Of a DNA stretch of 12,085 nucleotides, positions 1 to 7,031 are shown in pieces. Under the pieces are notes generated by a model. The model saw nothing but the letters and a program-made list of their open reading frames with translations, made no database searches and had not been told where the DNA came from. Within the stretch, counting starts at the first letter, position 1; each line of letters begins with the position of its first letter. A program made the position numbers and the translations under genes. The DNA comes from a virus. Lineage: Duplodnaviria > Heunggongvirae > Uroviricota > Caudoviricetes. The stretch lies in the IMG/VR virus record IMGVR_UViG_2713896780_000027. One strand, 5' to 3'.

Positions 1-294
1 GCGTATGGTCAACCTGACAACCCGGTGTCCTCAACGGGGAAGGAATAACCCCTCCATACTTACCGCCGCGCCATTTCGCGGATTGCCACAACCGGAAGCG
101 CACGGTCGACGAAAATTTAACGACAGGCTATCTATGAACCAGCTACCTCGCCGTGCGCTTTCGCGTTATGGTCTGACTTTTCAGAGAAATATCCTTTCAG
201 TAAACTGTCAGTGCCGGATGTTCACCCGTGTCCGGCGCACGCACTCCACTTCACCCGTGGAGAACTCCTTAATTACCAACCCTCAGGAGGGTGA

Positions 295-528
295 ATGTTA
301 AAATCAACTCTTATTGCTAAATGCCTTTATCAAAATCGCATGGTAAGCAGCATTTCAATAGGCGAGTCTGCAGTTAAAAGTATTTTCGAAGAGTACTTTC
401 CCGGGCATGATTTTAATAAATGGAATACCAAATTACCGCCAGCAGTTTCAACGCGTATTCTGAAAGCAACCGAAAGAGCAAGTACAATTCGCGTTAACTA
501 TTTCATTAAAGATTTGTGGGATCTTTGA
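295..528 (+). CDS. hypothetical small protein (77 aa), low-GC accessory gene
   Basis: ATG at 295 with AGGAGG about 6 nt upstream (287-292). AT-rich coding sequence contrasts with the GC-rich leader at 1-294. Its 3' end overlaps the convergent 135-aa gene by about 23 bp. No family recognised. Confidence 0.4.
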   Translation: MLKSTLIAKCLYQNRMVSSISIGESAVKSIFEEYFPGHDFNKWNTKLPPAVSTRILKATERASTIRVNYFIKDLWDL

Positions 529-913
529 TATCCACAGAGCCTAAAGTATGTGCATATGGATGTGCTATTATGCGCCCTCGCAGATTTGCATCATTTTCTA
601 AATTCACTGAACGAAACAGGGCATCAACAAGGCTCTGTACAATGCAAAGGCAATCGAAGACTGTCGCCGTTTCTGTTTTGATTGATGAAAGAACATGGCC
701 ATTCACGCAAACAGAAATTACCCGTTTATTAACATCGCTTTCCTGCTTTTGATTATCAGAACCATATAGCCCAGAAAAAGCATTGCGCACATTACGAACC
801 ATATTATCGATGGTTTCTTTTTCTGCGGTACTAAGGTCAAGAGTAGCCAGTTGTGAACGAACTATATTCGATGCCATTTCCTGTAATGGCGTTGGTAAAT
901 CTTTAAATTCCAT
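506..913 (-). CDS. hypothetical protein (135 aa), last gene of the leftward early operon
   Basis: ATG at 913 (minus) preceded by GAGG. Co-oriented with the upstream 72-aa and 118-aa genes, separated from the former by only 22 bp. Low GC. No family recognised. Confidence 0.5.
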   Translation of the reverse strand: MEFKDLPTPLQEMASNIVRSQLATLDLSTAEKETIDNMVRNVRNAFSGLYGSDNQKQESDVNKRVISVCVNGHVLSSIKTETATVFDCLCIVQSLVDALFRSVNLENDANLRGRIIAHPYAHTLGSVDIKDPTNL

Positions 914-935
914 TATTAGCCTCGTTGGTTAGCTA

Positions 936-1154
936 TTAACGTGGGTATGTAATCATTCTGGCAATGCTTAATGCCGCTGCTTTTTCCAGATTGGTGATAT
1001 CCTGCTCCAGAGCGGACAGATTTTCAGCCTGCTTAGCCCTGGCTTCATTGGCCCATTTCAGGTCCTGCACCGCCTTAATTTTCTGGTGCATCCACTCATA
1101 AAGTTCATCATCGGTATAGTCTGGCGCGATGATGACGGGGTCTCGTTTCTGCAT
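936..1154 (-). CDS. hypothetical small protein (72 aa)
   Basis: ATG at 1154 (minus) with a strong AAGGAG Shine-Dalgarno 5 nt upstream. Predicted acidic/helical product. Sits in the leftward operon downstream of the repressor gene. Confidence 0.55.
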   Translation of the reverse strand: MQKRDPVIIAPDYTDDELYEWMHQKIKAVQDLKWANEARAKQAENLSALEQDITNLEKAAALSIARMITYPR

Positions 1155-1226
1155 GTCGGCTCCTTGTGGTTAGCGTTGCCTGCTTTTTAACCACGTCAGG
1201 CGAGGTGGTATCCTCTGAGGGGTCTG

Positions 1227-1583
1227 TTACTCGAGAGGAAATTGGTTATGAATACAATCAAGTTTTCTTGCCCAGAATGTGGTGGCTAAGTCTTTGACAC
1301 ATCCTTTAAGCCGCAGGGCTCTGACAGTTTCGCGGGAGCCATCTGCAAAAATTGTGGTCACCTTGTAACTGAAGATGAGTCCTCGCAGTTCGATGACGAA
1401 ATCGTTGACAATATCTTCGGTGCACTCACCAGAGACTTTCTGAAGTAAAGGCGCATACCGCTTAGTTACCGCTCTGATAACTCTTACCTGTCCGGCAATG
1501 GCGCTGATATCAATATAAAGCGCCATCGCTGTTTCTTTGCTGATCCCTGGACGCCTTCCATTCTGATGTTTGACTTCGCCCAC
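1227..1583 (-). CDS. hypothetical protein (118 aa)
   Basis: GTG start at 1583 (minus) preceded by AGAGGA with 7-nt spacing. An internal ATG (Met20) is an alternative start. First ORF downstream of the dicA-like gene on the same strand. Confidence 0.45.
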   Translation of the reverse strand: MGEVKHQNGRRPGISKETAMALYIDISAIAGQVRVIRAVTKRYAPLLQKVSGECTEDIVNDFVIELRGLIFSYKVTTIFADGSRETVRALRLKGCVKDLATTFWARKLDCIHNQFPLE

Positions 1584-1790
1584 TGAGAAATCCTCTGCTT
1601 CCCCTTAACGCCGGGTAGCGGAACTGTTTGCTGAGAACACCGTGCGGTGTCTTGATGAGTAGAATTTAGAATAGCCTAAGAGTTATGGTTAAGCTTTTTG
1701 TGTAGAAAAACCTAAGCTTCTTGATGTAAAAAACACAAGTATTTGAAAGTTTGTGCTTTTTATTACAGAGAGTTGCGAAAAAAAGGGGGG

Positions 1791-2198
1791 TTATTTATTT
1801 GCGCTTCTTTTGCGAGCTTTGAGTAGTTCTTCAAAAAGTTTGTTGAAATTCTCAACTCGAGCACGCATCTCTGACAACAGAGCCTTTTGCTCTGACTCAG
1901 GCAGTGCGTCGAACAGTTGAAGCAACTCTTTTTGATCTTCTGTCAGATTGACTGGCTGATTATCTGGGATCGGTTCGCCTGGTTGCTTATCTTCATCTCC
2001 AAAAAGAAGCCAAGTCGGCGAGCACTGAAGCGCCTGGCTCAGTGCGAATAATCTCTTCCCCGCTGGCTGTGTTTCATCTCTTTCCCATTGAGAAATTGTT
2101 ACGTGAGCCACTTTGACCAGCTTACCTAATGCGGCCTGAGACAGTTTTAATTTTTTTCGCCTGTATAAGAGGCGAGCACCGAAGGTTTCGTTTTTCAT
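1791..2198 (-). CDS. dicA: DicA-like CI-type prophage repressor (HTH XRE family), 135 aa
   Basis: Translation carries an N-terminal HTH (LSQAALGKLVKVAHVTISQWER) and the motifs LFALSQALQCSPTWLLFGDEDKQP and NFNKLFEELLKARKR. These match my recollection of E. coli Qin DicA closely, and the length is the same. It is divergent from a Cro-like gene. Confidence 0.75.
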   Translation of the reverse strand: MKNETFGARLLYRRKKLKLSQAALGKLVKVAHVTISQWERDETQPAGKRLFALSQALQCSPTWLLFGDEDKQPGEPIPDNQPVNLTEDQKELLQLFDALPESEQKALLSEMRARVENFNKLFEELLKARKRSANK

Positions 2199-2274
2199 AT
2201 TAGGTAATTCTAATTTTTCTTGACTTAGGTTTCTCTACGATCTAGTTTCCTTAGGAAAATCTAAGGGGTTCGAT
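2199..2274. promoter_or_regulatory. divergent repressor/cro intergenic control region with operator-like inverted repeats
   Basis: 76-bp gap between divergent dicA-like and dicC-like starts. Contains -35-like TTGACT (2220-2225), the inverted repeat CCTTAG-N6-CTAAGG (about 2249-2266) and a further CTTAGG at 2223-2228. Confidence 0.5.
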
Positions 2275-2502
2275 ATGTTGAAAATTGATGCTATAGCGTT
2301 TTTTGGCAGCAAAACAAAGCTTGCCAATGTCGCAGGAGTTAGGCTGGCAAGCGTTGCTGCATGGGGGGAACTGGTTCCTGAAGGTCGCGCGATGCGCCTG
2401 CAAGAGGCATCCGGCGGGGAACTTCAGTACGACCCCAAAGTTTATGACGAATATCGTAAGGCAAAGCGGGCGGGGCGGTTGAACAATGAAAATCACCACT
2501 GA
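2275..2502 (+). CDS. dicC: Cro-like regulator of the DicC/YdaS family, 75 aa
   Basis: ATG at 2275 with AAGGGG upstream. Divergent from the dicA-like gene. Product resembles DicC/YdaS-type Cro proteins (FFGSKTKLANVAGV...GRAMRLQEASGGELQYDP). Confidence 0.6.
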   Translation: MLKIDAIAFFGSKTKLANVAGVRLASVAAWGELVPEGRAMRLQEASGGELQYDPKVYDEYRKAKRAGRLNNENHH

Positions 2503-3037
2503 ACAGGTTTGTGAGGCTCTGGATACCTGGGTATGCCGACCAGGAATGACACAGGAGCAGGCGACGATATTAATCACGGAAGCATTCTGGGCTCTGAAAG
2601 AACGCCCGAACATCGATGTTCAACGCGTCACGTTTAATGATGGCGAGGTTGATCAACGGGCGCTGGGCGTTAACCGGGTGAAGATATTCGAACGCTGGAA
2701 AGCTATCGACACCAGAGATAAGCGTGACAAATTCACGGCGCTGATTCCGGCAATTATGGAGGCTATCCGGATCAGCGATTTCAGATTGTATTGTGAAATT
2801 ACTGACGGAAAAAGCATTACGTACATGATCGCCGGGTTAAACAAAGAATATGGCGATGTGGTGGAGTCCGGGCTGCTTTTTGCGGATCCAGTTGTTGTGG
2901 AACGTGAGACTGACGAGCTTATAGAAAAAGCTATTGCTTTCAAGCACGCGTATCGTCAGCAATACCAATATTACTTTGCAGATAAACAAATGTCTGCCAG
3001 GGGTTCGTATGAGTATCGATGCACTACGATGGGCTAA
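2486..3037 (+). CDS. YdaT-like protein (CII-like regulator/toxin-domain family), 183 aa
   Basis: ATG at 2486 overlaps the end of the cro-like gene by 17 bp. Position and N-terminal sequence are consistent with the YdaT proteins that follow YdaS/Cro in Rac and CP-933P-type prophages. The C-terminal 29 bp overlap the O-like start. Confidence 0.55.
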   Translation: MKITTEQVCEALDTWVCRPGMTQEQATILITEAFWALKERPNIDVQRVTFNDGEVDQRALGVNRVKIFERWKAIDTRDKRDKFTALIPAIMEAIRISDFRLYCEITDGKSITYMIAGLNKEYGDVVESGLLFADPVVVERETDELIEKAIAFKHAYRQQYQYYFADKQMSARGSYEYRCTTMG

Positions 3038-4049
3038 AAAGGTGAAAACCGGCAGTTCATCCAGTAAGTCAGTATTGACCTGGCTTGCTGATATGTGCGG
3101 TGCCGATTTGTGTGCATACCCGTCTGTATCTGCACTGGCAGAAGTAACGGAACTGAACAAAAAGACTGTGCAGGACAGCTTACGACACCTGATGGAGATT
3201 GGGTTAATTGTTGATACCGGTGAGAGAAAAGGCAGAACAAAGCAAATTGTGGTGTACCGACTTATCGGTGTAGAAGAAAGTGTTGCCGAGCCTGAATACA
3301 CCCAAAAACGGGAGTCTTTAAAGGTGGGTAAAATTGGTGCTGTTAATAAAAACAGTACCGAAAATGGTTATGTTTCAGCACAAAACAGACCCAAAAACAG
3401 AACTCTTAGCTGCATGGAAAATAACCAAAGACACCCAAATTTTCCATCAAAGACACCCAAAAACGGATCACGGAACCCAAAGGAACCCAAAGATCTAAAC
3501 CCCACACATAACGCACGCGAGAGTGCTCCGACCAGTGAGCAGGAAGTTTTGTCGTTACAGGCAGCCCCCCCTGTATTCCTGTATGGCCTGAGCGAACCCA
3601 TCGGAAAATTCCCGATGAGCGATAGCTGGTATCCGTCACGGGATTTTCGACGACGGGCTGCGTTGTGGGGGATGGCTTTGCCGGAGACAGAATTTACACC
3701 TGCTGAACTTGCCGCCTTCCGGGACTACTGGGCAGCGGAGGGGAAAGTGTTTACGCAGATTCAGTGGGAGCAGAAATTCGCCCGTCACGTAAATCACGTC
3801 AGGGCGCAGGTTAAACCAGTCAGCAAAGGGGTAAACCATGCAGCAGCACCAGGTGGCACCGCATCACGGGCAGTTCAGGAAATTCGGGCAGCACGTGAGC
3901 AGTGGGAACGTGAAAACGGATTTATCAGCGACGGAAACGGCCTGGAAGCTGTGGGAACTCATGGGGGAGGTTTATTCGAACCGCTGGACCCAGAAGAACG
4001 GGGCCGCACCATCGAAGCTCTGGATTGCACAGATTGGCGCGATGACTGA
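3009..4049 (+). CDS. replication initiator, lambda O-like (N-terminal HTH, low-complexity linker, C-terminal DnaT-like domain)
   Basis: ATG at 3009 (MSIDALRWAKK...) with AGGGG upstream; the longer ORF from 2934 was rejected. N-terminal winged-helix region, P/K/N-rich linker encoded by the iteron repeats, and a DnaT-like C-terminal region (FTPAELAAFRDYWAAEG...). The last 212 bp overlap the P-like gene out of frame. Confidence 0.65.
   Translation: MSIDALRWAKKVKTGSSSSKSVLTWLADMCGADLCAYPSVSALAEVTELNKKTVQDSLRHLMEIGLIVDTGERKGRTKQIVVYRLIGVEESVAEPEYTQKRESLKVGKIGAVNKNSTENGYVSAQNRPKNRTLSCMENNQRHPNFPSKTPKNGSRNPKEPKDLNPTHNARESAPTSEQEVLSLQAAPPVFLYGLSEPIGKFPMSDSWYPSRDFRRRAALWGMALPETEFTPAELAAFRDYWAAEGKVFTQIQWEQKFARHVNHVRAQVKPVSKGVNHAAAPGGTASRAVQEIRAAREQWERENGFISDGNGLEAVGTHGGGLFEPLDPEERGRTIEALDCTDWRDD
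3386..3495. repeat. iteron-like direct repeats (candidate phage origin) inside the O-like gene
   Basis: At least five copies of an (A/G)ACCCAAA core within about 110 bp (AGACCCAAAAACAG, AGACACCCAAATTTT, AGACACCCAAAAACGG, GGAACCCAAAGG, GAACCCAAAGATC). They lie in the linker-coding part of the initiator gene, as in the lambda ori. Confidence 0.5.
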
Positions 4050-4503
4050 GCAGCAAATCCGGCAGGTCTGCCGCCAGTGCATGGACCGCTGCCGGGCGGG
4101 TGAAACATGGCCTCCGGACCTGGCTGAGTTTGTGGCACTGATTTCGAAAAGCGGAGCCAATCCATTCGGTCTGACGGTGGATGCTGTGATGGAGGAGTAC
4201 CGCCGCTGGCGCAATGAGTCCTGGCGATACGACGGAAGTGATAAGTACCCGTGGTCTCAGCCTGTGCTGTATCACATTTGCCTCGAGATGCGTTCAAAGG
4301 GGATTGAGCGCCAGATGACCGAAGGGGAATTAAAACGGCTTGCAGAACGGCAACTGACGAAATGGGCAAAGCATGTTAGTAACGGCCTGAGCGTTCCGCC
4401 AGTCCGGCGACAACTGGCGGCCCCCAAACGCCCGTCGGGGCCAACGCCAATTGAGTTGCTGAAACAGGAATATGAACGCCGGAAAGCGGCTGGTTTTGTT
4501 TGA
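3838..4503 (+). CDS. replication protein P-like helicase loader (lambda P family)
   Basis: C-terminal half resembles lambda P as I recall it (YPWSQPVLYHICLEMR... against YPWKSNAHYWLVTNLY...). ATG at 3838 has AAAGGGG 6 nt upstream. Alternative starts are GTG 3910, ATG 3961 and ATG 4042. Confidence 0.65.
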   Translation: MQQHQVAPHHGQFRKFGQHVSSGNVKTDLSATETAWKLWELMGEVYSNRWTQKNGAAPSKLWIAQIGAMTEQQIRQVCRQCMDRCRAGETWPPDLAEFVALISKSGANPFGLTVDAVMEEYRRWRNESWRYDGSDKYPWSQPVLYHICLEMRSKGIERQMTEGELKRLAERQLTKWAKHVSNGLSVPPVRRQLAAPKRPSGPTPIELLKQEYERRKAAGFV

Positions 4504-4536
4504 GTTGAGAAGTGATTTTTTACCGGGAGGAAATTT

Positions 4537-5271
4537 ATGGAGACTGTTTTTGACGCACTGAAAGCGATGGGAAAAGCCACGTCGGTAGAGCTGGCTGCGC
4601 GACTTGATATCAGTCGTGAAGAAGTACTGAACGAGCTGTGGGAACTGAAAAAGGCTGGCTTCGTTGATAAAAGCGTATACACCTGGCGTGTGGCTGATAA
4701 CAACGTTCAGCAGGAACAGCCAGCGCCAGAAGAAACCACCACGGCAACAGAAGCGAAAATCTCAGAGTGCGATTTAACCGCGACGATTGAACAACGCGGA
4801 CCACAAACGGCGGATGAACTGGCTACGCTGTTCGGTACAACATCCCGCAAAGTTGCTTCAACGCTGGCAATGGCAATCAGCAAAGGTCGTCTGATTCGCG
4901 TAAACCAGAACGGTAAAATTCGTTACTGCATACCAGGTGATAATTTACCAGCAGAGCCGAAAGTTGAATCGGTAGCGGAAACCGATGGTAAAGCCTTTCC
5001 TCAGCCAGCCGGTGTTGCGTTACCGGTACAGAAAGATGCAACACAGGAAGATATTAAAACAGAAACTGTGGCGGACATTGTGCAGTCGCTGCCATCGTTT
5101 ACTGCAACGCGAGAAGATGATTTGATTTTGCCATCGCTGCATATGGCAAATCGCGAACTGCGTAGGGCGAAGAATCATGTCCAGAAGTGGGAGCGAGTCT
5201 GCGCCGCGCTGCGGGAGCTGAACAAGCACCGGGATATGGTTGCCGGGATTTGTCGGAAGTCCGGGCAATGA
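4537..5271 (+). CDS. conserved prophage protein, DUF1627-like, 244 aa
   Basis: ATG at 4537 with a strong GGGAGG Shine-Dalgarno. N-terminal winged-helix-like segment followed by an acidic/Thr-rich linker. Sits immediately after O/P, as in many lambdoid prophages. Family assignment is from memory only. Confidence 0.5.
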
Positions 5272-5432
5272 GCGGATGGTGCAGGCCTGAAATCATGATA
5301 CTAACAATGAAGGTAAAATGCATCGGCAGTCTGATTGGTCGTAGTGAGGCGGCGGTCAGGATGAAAGCCCAGGTTAAGGGAATAAGCCTGATTCTGCGGG
5401 GTGATTTTCACCAGTCAACAAAATATCCGTAG
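5268..5432 (+). CDS. hypothetical small protein (54 aa)
   Basis: ATG at 5268 overlaps the DUF1627 stop (ATGA coupling). The longer ORF from 5187 lacks a ribosome-binding site and overlaps the upstream gene. No homology recognised. Confidence 0.3.
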
Positions 5433-5712
5433 CGCGATAACGGTCAAAAATTATGGCGCTGACACTTTTGTGCCACTGGAGATGACTGTACCTAAGTTCA
5501 GGGGAGAAGAACACGTCCGGTGGGATGGTCGGGCCAGATTTAAAGGGCAGGTCATGGCTCCAGCCTGTACGCTGGCAATGGAGGCTGCCTGGCGGGAAAT
5601 TGATATGGGAACCACGCCACTCAGGGATTTACTGCCGGTCCAGAGAATAAATTCCTGTTACGGTTACACCACTGTGATCTTGCAAGTGCAGGAAAGTAGG
5701 TCTACACGGTAA
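5401..5712 (+). CDS. hypothetical ORF, possibly a gene remnant
   Basis: Open frame from GTG 5401; better-placed internal starts are ATG 5482 and ATG 5554 (AAAGGG upstream). No recognisable domain. May be a decayed gene at the moron boundary. Confidence 0.2.
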   Translation: MIFTSQQNIRSAITVKNYGADTFVPLEMTVPKFRGEEHVRWDGRARFKGQVMAPACTLAMEAAWREIDMGTTPLRDLLPVQRINSCYGYTTVILQVQESRSTR

Positions 5713-5937
5713 CGCGAGTGCGTGTAACTTTGATGTCATTCCCGTAGAAACACCGGACAAATTTTCGCTGACAGGTCATGCAGAAGGTATAAATCTGCAG
5801 ATTATGGACAATTACGGATATCCGGCAAGAGCCGGAAAAAGCATGCCGCCTCTAATTCTCAGTGGAAGATGGACTTGATTATACTCATTGCATTGTCAGA
5901 AATAGTTATCCATTAAAGGCTGGCTATTCCAAACAGG

Positions 5938-5965
5938 ATGTTGATTACAAAAATGTAATCAACAT
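5938..5965. promoter_or_regulatory. perfect 12-bp inverted repeat with 4-bp spacer upstream of the moron gene
   Basis: ATGTTGATTACA-AAAA-TGTAATCAACAT, perfect dyad symmetry. Lies in an AT-rich region about 25 bp upstream of a TATAAT hexamer (5992-5997) and about 165 bp upstream of the 6130 start codon. Confidence 0.4.
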
Positions 5966-6129
5966 GTAAGGTTTATACTCTTCAATATGCGTATAATTTT
6001 CCTTATTTTGTTGACTTTAAATAACAAGCTATGCACGAGGTAAAGTCGGATAAGTTTATCTGGATGTAATATATATTATTTGTAGTGTTTATAACTTTAT
6101 TTCATGATAACCAATAAAAGGAGTTTTTT

Positions 6130-6888
6130 ATGAGGAACATAATGGCAGGTTTTTTAATATTCCTGTCTTCTGCTGCTTATGCTGATATCAATCTGTATGG
6201 TCCTGGTGGCCCGCATACAGCCTTGCTTGATGCAGCCAAACTTTATGCCGAAAAAACAGGTATTATAGTGAACGTTCATTACGGCCCACAGAACAAATGG
6301 AATGAAGATGCCAAAAAAAATGCAGATATCTTGTTTGGCGCATCAGAACAATCTGCTCTGGCTATCATTCGGGACCATAAAGACAGCTTCAGTGAAAAAG
6401 ATATTCAGCCTCTTTATCTGCGAAAAAGTATTTTACTGGTAAAGAAAGGTAATCCTAAAAATATCCGGAGTATTGACGACCTGACCAGACCTGGGATTGG
6501 CGTAATTGTTAATGATGGTGGTGGTACCAGTAATACATCAGGCACTGGCGTCTGGGAAGATATTGCCGGACGTAAAGGGAATATAGAAACTGTCGCCGCA
6601 ATCCGAAAAAATATTATTTTATATGCGCCCAATAGCGGAACTGCACGTAAGGCTCTTGAGAATCAGCCTGGAGCAGATGTCTGGATAACCTGGGCTGACT
6701 GGGCAGCCAGTAATCCAGAAATTGGTGATGTCGTGGAAATAGCGCCAGACTACGTGATATGGCGTGATATGAACATTACAGTACGTCAGGATGCAAATGA
6801 TGAAACCCGTCGATTTGCAGAATGGCTACAAACCGATGAAGCGGCGCCTGCATTCAAAAAATATGGCTGGACCAGGAAAGGCACTTGA
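6130..6888 (+). CDS. secreted periplasmic solute-binding protein, ModA/AcfC-like (type II PBP fold), 252 aa
   Basis: GGAG 6 nt upstream of ATG 6130. Sec-type signal peptide (MRNIMAGFLIFLSSAAYA, AXA cleavage motif). Mature sequence resembles molybdate/sulfate-binding proteins and the AcfC family, including the C-terminal AFKKYGW motif. GC is well below the flanking phage genes. Confidence 0.65.
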   Translation: MRNIMAGFLIFLSSAAYADINLYGPGGPHTALLDAAKLYAEKTGIIVNVHYGPQNKWNEDAKKNADILFGASEQSALAIIRDHKDSFSEKDIQPLYLRKSILLVKKGNPKNIRSIDDLTRPGIGVIVNDGGGTSNTSGTGVWEDIAGRKGNIETVAAIRKNIILYAPNSGTARKALENQPGADVWITWADWAASNPEIGDVVEIAPDYVIWRDMNITVRQDANDETRRFAEWLQTDEAAPAFKKYGWTRKGT

Positions 6889-6894
6889 CATCCT

Positions 6895-6920
6895 CGTCCT
6901 TCAGGACGTGGATTCTTTTT
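6895..6920 (+). terminator. candidate intrinsic terminator after the solute-binding gene
   Basis: Stem CGTCC/GGACG with TTCA loop, 7 nt after the stop, followed by a T-rich tract (TTCTTTTT). Confidence 0.4.
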
Positions 6921-7007
6921 CCGGATGCCGCGCCAGCGGCATGTAGGGGCAGCTCACAAAACGGAAAAAATTGTACGCTAAGCCTCGCCAGGTGAACTGA
7001 ATTCATT

Positions 7008-7031
7008 CCGATATGGGAATTCCCATATCGG
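7008..7031. other. perfect 24-nt palindrome CCGATATGGGAATTCCCATATCGG
   Basis: Exact dyad symmetry centred on GAATTC. No flanking T-run on either strand, so not a typical terminator. Sits in GC-rich non-coding DNA with further hairpins (ATGCCGC-GCCA-GCGGCAT at 6925-6942; GAGGC-TATCT-GCCTC at about 7086-7100). Confidence 0.4.

Follow-up and report, generated by a model that had tools for sequence, protein, structure and literature searches.

The window analyzed here, a stretch of 12,085 nucleotides from a Caudoviricetes record (IMG/VR IMGVR_UViG_2713896780_000027), contains an intact open reading frame (ORF) of 252 codons at 6130 to 6888; it and the features around it are listed in Table 1. This ORF is paa, also named adfO and z2053 of EDL933, the "porcine attaching-and-effacing associated" gene, and it belongs to the AcfC/PEB3 family. 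Its protein match is "AcfC family adhesin Paa" (WP_001449026.1) of prophage PPompW in STEC O145:H28. Across 5713 to 6920, the DNA shows 100% identity to the paa gene annotated in O145:H28 chromosomes and in 11 PPompW phage records, and for positions 1 to 7123 of the window, NZ_CP028379 is likewise a 100% match. The same gene has been studied as Paa of porcine EPEC O45 and as AdfO (z2053, in CP-933O/OI-57/PPompW) of O157:H7 EDL933; the O157:H7 copy shares 99.9% DNA identity with the window and has the same neighbors (DUF1627, fimbrial pseudogene, and hokD/ckf) in the same prophage. The gene is not new, having already been described as a colonization-associated periplasmic binding protein gene of a defective lambda-like prophage in STEC and EPEC. 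The original prediction, made from the sequence alone, described a low-GC gene for a secreted ModA/AcfC-like solute-binding protein without transporter partners, and it proposed a fold search, a survey of related prophages, and an inspection of the pocket for oxyanion-binding residues. Its reading of the gene is supported, and it did not recognize that the gene is a named and experimentally studied one.

Table 1. Features of the paa/adfO locus (positions are those of the window)
Feature	Position	Strand	Remarks
Decayed PapH/SfpH-like minor fimbrial-subunit pseudogene	5458..5924	+	First ~21 and last ~13 codons missing; at least 3 frame changes; in-frame stops
AT-rich leader of paa, presumed promoter region	5929..6129	+	26.9% GC; TATAAT 5992-5997, AAGGAG 6118-6123
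paa/adfO coding sequence	6130..6888	+	252 codons + stop; signal peptide 6130-6183, mature protein of 234 aa 6184-6885
Intrinsic-terminator-like hairpin and U run	6887..6920	+	Hairpin 6887-6915, UUUUU 6916-6920; overlaps the paa stop codon
Second GC-rich hairpin	6925..6942	+	GAUGCCGC-GCCA-GCGGCAUG; closes the conserved part of the paa module; also present in the ETEC plasmid copy
Solo Tn3-family terminal inverted-repeat relic	6944..6992 (core 6946-6982)	+	Outer GGGG end adjoins the paa module
hok/sok (hokD = ckf) type I toxin-antitoxin locus	6993..7260	+	Constant neighbor of paa; blastn against the reference locus, hokD annotation

The gene lies in the early-right region of a defective lambdoid prophage at ompW (PPompW = CP-933O = OI-57) of LEE-positive STEC/EPEC. 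Consistent with this location, paa/adfO was previously reported in OI-57/CP-933O at ompW beside ckf/hok (PMC9144400; PMC8565820), always together with ckf (PMC8565820), and the PPompW-type prophage was described as defective (PMC8112680). Genes for a DnaT-domain replication protein, a lambda-P-like protein, and DUF1627 lie upstream of paa, and hok/sok, DUF968, RusA, and Q lie downstream, which agrees with the position between replication and nin genes that had been predicted. The hok/sok locus is mostly masked in the window by an N run (7125 to 7195) standing for 278 bp of the reference, and an Rfam sok match is found at 8365 to 8514 of the reference locus.

Within the prophage, paa is part of an approximately 1.6-kb block of foreign DNA, which comprises the decayed fimbrial gene, the paa cassette (AT-rich leader, Shine-Dalgarno sequence, ORF, and terminator), and the Tn3-family inverted-repeat relic, and which fills a variable cargo slot immediately upstream of hok/sok. 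A tblastn search with an intact plasmid homolog (195 amino acids, Pfam Fimbrial) recovered pieces of the fimbrial pseudogene in frames +1, +3, +2, and +3, and RefSeq labels positions 5437 to 5969 of the window "fimbrial protein, frameshifted; internal stop." The pseudogene shares 85% DNA identity with the second gene of IncF-plasmid chaperone-usher operons. The Tn3 relic matches the 3' end of a Tn3-family transposase gene on plasmid NZ_CP024248 at approximately 92%, with similar ends on other plasmids, and a partner inverted repeat was absent between 4500 and 7124.

The paa ORF has a G+C content of 43.9% and a GC3 of 34.8%, compared with a G+C content of 49.4% for the window, 51.6% for the replication genes, and 50.0% for the nin-region genes, and with GC3 values of 44 to 65% for the neighbors. 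The predicted low G+C content relative to the surrounding phage genes (approximately 50 to 52% in the flanks) was confirmed, and the view of paa as a compositionally deviant cargo gene between the replication and nin/Q genes of a lambdoid prophage is supported. The ATG start codon follows the Shine-Dalgarno sequence by 6 nt; GenBank LC567822 instead starts the gene at a second in-frame ATG, at 6142. The 201-bp leader is conserved with the region upstream of an enterotoxigenic (ETEC) plasmid paa from about 5945 onward; its TATAAT is kept there, and its -35 element is poor. A scan for consensus promoters gave no site in the leader and 4 sites in 5400 to 7400 against 4.0 expected from shuffles, so the promoter function of the leader is presumed only. 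A promoter belonging to paa itself is plausible. Half of the AT-rich promoter region assigned to the gene originally, the part from 5713 to 5928, is the 3' part of the fimbrial pseudogene. The gene's own terminator, also predicted, was recovered as a hairpin followed by five U residues; a 71-nt segment folds at -29.7 kcal/mol (z = -2.8 versus shuffles), and the ETEC plasmid copy retains the structure.

The whole paa block was found in 573 of 5,426 complete Escherichia coli genomes (at least 80% query coverage), and 545 records hold it with an identity of at least 99%. Approximately 3,000 genomes share the hok/sok flank, and the block is present in only 573. In a related prophage lacking paa, that of ATCC 25922, the slot between the replication genes and hokD-rem-ydfU is occupied by a reverse-strand DUF7380/DUF4209 gene. 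When all complete E. coli genomes were searched for an empty site, in which the left flank (5040 to 5440) would be joined to the right flank (6949 to 7124), no place with at least 80% coverage turned up, and segment homologies therefore served to set the boundaries of the insertion.

The cassette from 5926 to 6948 is also present on an ETEC IncF plasmid with 86% DNA identity, and the homology stops at 6948. The Paa variant encoded there (WP_001257942.1, plasmid NZ_CP097214) shares 93% protein identity with that of the window, and the leader from about 5945, the terminator, and the second hairpin are common to both copies. However, the ETEC variant is carried by a conjugative plasmid, where it lies beside IS1 copies and the STa enterotoxin gene, and it is accompanied neither by a fimbrial remnant nor by a Tn3 inverted repeat in the same form as the prophage copy.

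The Paa precursor begins with an 18-residue, Sec-type signal peptide, recognized by inspection (MRNIMAGFLIFLSSAAYA, cleaved before D), with a basic N-region, a hydrophobic core (mean Kyte-Doolittle value of 1.67 for residues 5 to 17), and A-x-A before D19. The mature protein begins with DINLYG, in agreement with the family pattern A-D-[IV]-N-L-Y-G, and D19 aligns with residue 1 or 2 of the crystallized mature PEB3 chains. Since the signal peptide contains no Cys, Paa is not a lipoprotein, and its sequence has no outer-membrane anchor, lipobox, autotransporter domain, or fimbrial domain. The 252-amino-acid precursor would be exported by the Sec pathway and cleaved after A18, as its sequence and homologs suggest. 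Among these homologs, AcfC was found to be periplasmic by fractionation, and PEB3 was reported as a periplasmic glycoprotein (PMC5976639).

A search of Pfam detected SBP_bac_11 in residues 20 to 247 of Paa (E value of 5.5e-34; 118.3 bits versus a cutoff of 25), covering profile positions 1 to 226 of 227. In the PDB, phmmer retrieved PEB3 of Campylobacter jejuni (E value of 1.2e-81, residues 11 to 248, 53% identity) and AcfC of Vibrio cholerae (4jb7; E value of 3.5e-81, residues 16 to 248, 52% identity). The 53% identity to solved structures settles the fold, and the secreted solute-binding protein that had been predicted is borne out by the Pfam and PDB matches and by the signal peptide. By sequence, Paa is assigned to the AcfC/PEB3/Paa family of stand-alone binding proteins, and the product is expected to be a soluble, two-lobed, periplasmic protein of the class II binding-protein fold. 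The family alignment contains 91 invariant columns, including YGPGGPH, GPQ, SNTSGT-VWED, PNSG-ARK, and WITW-DW. The loop S134-N135-T136-S137-G138-T139 is invariant in all five aligned sequences, and T136 and S137 of Paa correspond to T138 and S139 of PEB3, with the numbering verified against the K135E mutant chain 3fir. In 2009, Min et al. reportedly found that mutation of these two PEB3 residues abolishes the binding of 3-phosphoglycerate and phosphoenolpyruvate (PEP). From the alignment, Paa may likewise hold a small anionic ligand in the cleft between its lobes by means of the S134-N-T136-S137-G-T loop.

PEB3 (Cj0289c; PDB 2hxw, 3fir, 3fjg, 3fjm, and 3fj7) resembles Paa across the whole mature protein and shares with it the junction A-D-[IV]-N-L-Y-G-P-G-G-P-H, the ligand-site residues, and the stand-alone gene. 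However, PEB3 is chromosomal and N-glycosylated at N90 (sequon D-F-N-V-S), whereas Paa has D-S-F-S-E at that position and consequently no sequon. AcfC (VC0841, located in VPI-1) has the same fold and motifs as Paa and is likewise horizontally acquired and associated with colonization. The acfC gene is under ToxR/ToxT control according to the cited literature and directly follows the gene for AcfB, a chemoreceptor with MCPsignal, dCache, and HAMP domains, whereas paa has no chemoreceptor neighbor.

ModA and Sbp/CysP have the same broad class II anion-binding-protein fold as Paa and fall into the same Pfam family or clan. Paa scored below the ModA equivalog cutoffs (18.3 bits versus 62.5, 14.4 versus 288, and 11.7 versus 253 for TIGR01256, NF002918, and NF007958, respectively) and below those of the Sbp/CysP NCBIfam subfamilies (22.6 versus 288, 21.5 versus 155.5, and 19.0 versus 308), with a local match of only about 45 residues to the latter. 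An hhalign comparison with ModA gave a probability of 85% over 52 N-terminal columns only, which reached just two of the five ligand positions of ModA. The two proteins are in register at the first two anion-binding loops, and G27 and Q54 of Paa stand opposite Ser12 and Ser39 of mature ModA (precursor S36 and S63), which are molybdate ligands. A ModA or sulfate-binding ortholog is ruled out by the scores and, for ModA, also by the replacement of these serines. The label "ModA/AcfC-like" was therefore right in its AcfC part and holds for ModA at the level of the fold only.

The modABC and cysPUWA genes form operons, whereas permease or ATPase genes are not adjacent to paa. In the window, no ORF carries a Walker A plus an LSGGQ-type motif or resembles ModB, ModC, CysU, CysW, or CysA, and the same search detected the controls modC and cysA of strain K-12. 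ABC permease and ATPase genes were also absent next to genes of the paa family on two plasmids and at 26 loci from about 14 other genera, as had been predicted for the window. The only ABC set within 6 kb across these loci is a Campylobacter modABC with its own modA. All-against-all clustering of the ORFs in the 4 kb around 29 loci revealed synteny within genera only, without a neighbor conserved across genera, and a gene for a methyl-accepting chemotaxis protein (MCP) is nearby in 2 of the 29. A missing fold, a missing signal peptide, or invariable ABC genes would have contradicted the prediction; none of the three was observed.

The best overall explanation, with a probability of roughly 0.9, is that the ORF is paa, carried as cargo of PPompW, and that its product is an exported protein with a receptor fold. 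According to secondary sources, Paa/AdfO raises adherence, attaching-and-effacing lesion formation, and colonization, in line with the link to colonization originally noted for AcfC-type proteins. The three family members that have been studied carry conflicting labels, namely, adhesin, phosphoglycerate binder, and sulfate sensor or chemotaxis factor. The soluble periplasmic fold, the invariant small-ligand site, and the absence of an anchor favor a ligand-receptor role over a classical adhesin. Paa may influence colonization as a periplasmic ligand receptor that feeds a host-encoded partner, such as a chemoreceptor, a transporter, or a secretion pathway; taken by itself, this mechanism has somewhat better than even odds and is likelier than a surface adhesin. 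It is suggested by an AcfC mutant whose adhesion to Caco-2 and HT-29MTX cells was unchanged (PMC5976639) but whose chemotaxis to mucin and distribution in the gut were altered (PMC5976639 among the sources), and by an adfO mutant that reportedly secreted lower amounts of several other proteins (PMC8565820). Against it, no conserved partner gene was found and MCP genes are rare at the loci, which leaves the indirect route without an identified partner in E. coli. The leading alternative is that Paa is a genuine surface adhesin, part of which reaches the surface, binds a host structure such as sulfated glycans or mucin, and aids early attachment before intimin-Tir. Secondary sources consistently label Paa and PEB3 adhesins, which favors this alternative. 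The RefSeq name points the same way, as do the reduced HeLa adherence of adfO mutants described in reviews (PMC8565820 among the sources) and the binding of purified AcfC to heparin, chondroitin sulfate, and mucin in an enzyme-linked immunosorbent assay (cited literature). However, a complete soluble binding-protein fold lacking any surface-attachment domain, the invariance of the residues that form the ligand site of a small-molecule binder, and the periplasmic location and unchanged adhesion phenotype of AcfC make an adhesin unlikely.

It is also doubtful whether Paa, rather than being an adhesin, is a periplasmic "plug-in" receptor that the prophage supplies for an anion of host origin (for example, sulfated mucin fragments or phosphorylated three-carbon acids) and that signals through a chromosomal chemoreceptor or secretion pathway of E. 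coli. Such a system would parallel AcfC-AcfB of V. cholerae but with the partner drawn from the host genome, and acquisition of the prophage would then rewire where the bacterium settles in the gut. It is improbable that Paa is an ordinary uptake receptor, one whose own permease was lost or never required, that docks on an ABC or other transporter encoded by the host chromosome to import a nutrient such as 3-phosphoglycerate, PEP, phosphate, or sulfate, which would give the colonization phenotype a metabolic basis. The class II fold and the weak local similarity to sulfate/thiosulfate-binding proteins are in its favor, and PEB3 is said, again by Min et al. in 2009, to bind 3-phosphoglycerate and PEP and to support growth on 3-phosphoglycerate. 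In E. coli K-12, a single permease serves both Sbp and CysP, which provides a precedent for permease sharing. However, ABC genes are not adjacent at any of the loci surveyed, the scores are far under the ModA, Sbp, and CysP cutoffs, and G27 and Q54 replace the ModA serines. That paa is an inert passenger, a plasmid or transposon leftover in a decaying prophage that is neither expressed nor useful, is scarcely credible. The defective prophage, the adjoining fimbrial pseudogene and solo Tn3 relic, and the scan without a consensus promoter would fit such a leftover. However, the sampled records carry an intact ORF with a functional annotation, the block is present in 573 genomes and almost unchanged in 545 records, and mutant phenotypes are reported in the literature. 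Moreover, dN/dS is 0.03 to 0.09 against plasmid and other-species copies, which indicates strong purifying selection on paa, whereas the fimbrial gene beside it has decayed.

The use of paa/adfO as a routine virulence-typing marker of STEC/EPEC, and the link of OI-57 to more pathogenic seropathotypes, are unchanged by the present data. A ligand-receptor role, if true, would bear on vaccine and antibody strategies that treat Paa as a surface antigen. The window shows no difference of substance from the known paa/adfO; on the right-hand side of the N run, it diverges by 0.6% from the O145 references, which makes the source strain a close relative of those records and not one of them.

The stretch at 5713-6920 (1,208 bp) matches 9 of the 11 GenBank records of prophage PPompW from STEC O145:H28 at 100% identity and the remaining 2 at 99.9%. 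It is also 100% identical in O145:H28 chromosomes, where RefSeq names the gene "paa: AcfC family adhesin Paa" (WP_001449026.1). The gene is therefore not new but the already named and studied paa (adfO, z2053). It lies on O-island 57, which is prophage CP-933O in ompW, and invariably adjoins ckf, a Hok-family toxin gene; an adfO mutant shows lower HeLa adherence and lower secretion of several proteins (PMC8565820; PMC9144400). In porcine EPEC, Paa also contributes to the formation of attaching-and-effacing lesions (PMC2749873; PMC10562709). The original prediction of an AcfC-type orphan linked to colonization agrees with this literature on adherence (PMC8565820) and lesions (PMC2749873), and its interpretation of the locus is supported. 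Among 5,426 complete E. coli genomes, 623 contain the stretch and 573 contain the larger block at 5300-7124, including O157:H7, O145, O111, O26, and O103 strains. Beyond what is known of paa, the analysis makes three small additions: a composite cargo block, consisting of a fimbrial remnant, a cassette shared with ETEC plasmids, and a solo Tn3-family end; a variable slot upstream of hok/sok; and the family-wide absence of transporter partners.

Features of the paa cargo block (window positions)
Feature	Position	Strand	Remark
Decayed PapH/SfpH-like minor fimbrial subunit pseudogene	5458-5924		Identified by tblastn and RefSeq
AT-rich leader of paa	5929-6129		Sole part of the proposed promoter region belonging to paa
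paa ORF	6130-6888	+	252 codons; sole intact ORF within 5713-6920
Terminator-like hairpin, then five U	6887-6915	+	Overlaps the stop codon
Second GC-rich hairpin	6925-6942	+	3' of the terminator
Solo Tn3-family terminal inverted-repeat relic (GGGGCAGCTCACAAAACGGAAAAAATTGTACGCTAAG)	6944-6992 (core, 6946-6982)		49 bp
hok/sok	Right of the Tn3-family relic		Largely under the N run, 7125-7195

The predicted low GC content was confirmed, with 43.9% in the paa ORF (GC3, 34.8%) and 26.9% in the 201 bases 5' of it versus 50 to 52% in the flanking replication and nin-region genes and a window mean of 49.4%. AAGGAG lies six bases 5' of the paa ATG. The gene has its own terminator as proposed, and the two hairpins folded jointly give -29.7 kcal/mol (z = -2.8 versus shuffles). 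The proposed AT-rich promoter region is composite. The leader is indeed AT rich, but the preceding part is the fimbrial pseudogene, and a consensus scan detected no promoter within the leader, nor did its hits outnumber those in shuffles. Alignment of this pseudogene by tblastn with an intact 195-amino-acid plasmid homologue requires frames +1, +3, +2, and +3 and crosses in-frame stops; ~21 N-terminal and ~13 C-terminal residues are missing, and RefSeq labels it frameshifted. It is 85% identical to gene 2 of a chaperone-usher operon on IncF plasmids, and no usher or chaperone genes were found in the window.

The cassette at 5926-6948 matches, with 86% DNA and 93% protein identity, a paa variant of an ETEC IncF plasmid; this variant is flanked by IS1 copies and adjoins the STa enterotoxin gene. 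The leader from ~5945, a TATAAT at 5992-5997, the terminator, and the second hairpin are common to both, and the homology stops at the outer GGGG of the Tn3-family relic. The relic matches at ~92% a Tn3-family transposon end at the 3' end of the transposase gene on another plasmid; a search of 4500-7124 for its partner repeat found none. A Salmonella plasmid homologue of paa adjoins a Tn3 transposase fragment and a resolvase, which suggests that paa has travelled beside or with Tn3-family transposons. The 71 N of the N run replace 278 bp of the reference prophage and are not a same-length mask, with coordinates to the right shifted by 207 bp. The replaced segment holds the hokD/ckf toxin coding sequence and the sok antisense RNA, which in the reference scores 103.9 bits against Rfam RF01794. 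Positions 1-7123 are identical to NZ_CP028379, with 99.4% identity right of the N run. Against the O145:H28 references, this left part shows 100% identity and 7196-12085 shows 24 differences and 4 gaps, which suggests either that a recombination boundary lies near hok/sok or that the source strain is not among these references.

As predicted, Paa is a signal-peptide solute-binding protein. It matches Pfam SBP_bac_11 over nearly the whole profile (E value, 5.5e-34; 118 bits; cut-off, 25) and, by sequence alone, the solved structures of Campylobacter jejuni PEB3 (E value, 1.2e-81; residues 11 to 248) and Vibrio cholerae AcfC (4jb7; E value, 3.5e-81; residues 16 to 248). The N terminus, MRNIMAGFLIFLSSAAYA followed after the cut by DINLYG, combines a basic start with a hydrophobic core and A-x-A preceding the cut, and in the alignment D19 falls at the first residues of mature crystallized PEB3 chains. 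Paa is not a lipoprotein, because its whole sequence contains no Cys. By sequence and homology, Paa is an exported, soluble protein with a two-lobed binding-protein fold. It belongs to the AcfC/PEB3/Paa group on all features examined, and the proposed ModA likeness holds at the level of fold only, since Paa scores 18.3 bits against the TIGR01256 modA model (cut-off, 62.5). Sbp and CysP, the sulfate and thiosulfate binders, give 19 to 23 bits (cut-offs, 155 to 308), and assignment to ModA or Sbp/CysP was rejected with scores so far under the cut-offs. Within the ModA-alignable part, Paa has G27 and Q54 in place of mature Ser12 and Ser39, which are molybdate ligands of ModA. Unlike PEB3, which has an N-glycosylation sequon at N90, Paa has no sequon at that position.

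A pattern-based scan with one genome per species yielded 26 homologue loci, from Escherichia albertii, Citrobacter, Edwardsiella, Aeromonas, Vibrio, Campylobacter, Helicobacter, Desulfovibrio, Mucispirillaceae, a spirochaete, Cetobacterium, Endozoicomonas, and Elioraea, for the most part animal-associated bacteria. The predicted lack of transporter partners held in the window, where no ORF has ABC-ATPase motifs or resembles ModB, ModC, CysU, CysW, or CysA (the K-12 modC and cysA controls were both recovered). It also held in the family: none of the 26 loci has an adjoining ABC ATPase or permease gene, so ABC transporter genes are not a constant companion of the homologues. Within 6 kb, Campylobacter modABC is the sole ABC set; it lies 4.5 to 6 kb off and includes its own modA. 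Neighbor clustering found no gene conserved across genera beside the homologues. A chemoreceptor (MCP) gene adjoins the homologue only in V. cholerae (acfB, 4067-5950 of that locus); in Helicobacter apodemus one lies ~2 kb away (2429-3850 of that locus), and none is near the homologue in the other 27 loci. A stand-alone gene is the norm of this family.

The dN/dS values of prophage paa against the ETEC plasmid, E. albertii, and Salmonella plasmid copies are 0.03 to 0.07 (0.03 to 0.09 for all computable pairs). Together with decay of the adjacent fimbrial gene over the same history, this argues for maintained paa function. Paa, its plasmid variants, PEB3, and AcfC share 91 invariant positions, including S134-N-T136-S137-G-T. 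The K135E mutant chain fixes the PEB3 numbering and places PEB3 T138/S139 at Paa T136/S137. Min et al. (2009) reportedly found that T138A/S139A abolished PEB3 binding of 3-phosphoglycerate and phosphoenolpyruvate. Paa may be read, with a probability of about 0.55, as a periplasmic protein that would bind a small anion and affect adherence indirectly through a host-encoded partner.

That Paa is a true surface adhesin, the label used consistently in secondary sources, is possible but doubtful; its relative AcfC is periplasmic and had no effect on adhesion to Caco-2 or HT-29MTX cells (PMC5976639). In vitro, AcfC binds mucin as well as sulfated glycans, and it alters both chemotaxis toward mucin and distribution within the gut of rabbits. 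We regard a role of Paa in simple nutrient uptake via a borrowed transporter as improbable.

The predicted position between replication and nin genes was borne out. A CI-like repressor, Cro, YdaT, a DnaT-domain replication protein, a lambda-P-like protein, and DUF1627 lie upstream of paa, and DUF968, RusA, and antiterminator Q lie downstream. The hok/sok flank occurs without paa in about 3,000 genomes. One of these is E. coli ATCC 25922, whose related, paa-less prophage has in this slot, with the replication genes on one side and hokD-rem-ydfU on the other, an unrelated gene on the reverse strand for a 595-amino-acid DUF7380/DUF4209 protein (1735-3522 of that locus). The site is therefore one of variable cargo, and "moron" is a fair term for the cassette.

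PPompW prophages are defective lambda-like elements (PMC8112680). The immunity region at 1791-3037 is of the dicA/dicC (Qin/Rac-like) type and comprises a minus-strand gene for a CI-like HTH_3 repressor, a gene resembling P22 cro, and a member of the YdaT family; DicF RNA and dicB of the reference prophage lie farther left, beyond the window edge. Three phage-borne tRNA genes, Met(cat), which RefSeq names tRNA-Ile, Lys(ttt), which is absent from its annotation, and Arg(tct), lie 3' of Q (10304-10544) and are followed by ISEc20 (10658-11854). The ISEc20 (IS110-family) transposase gene, on the minus strand, occupies the usual position of the lysis cassette, which fits the IS-mediated deletion that has been published for PPompW (PMC8112680).
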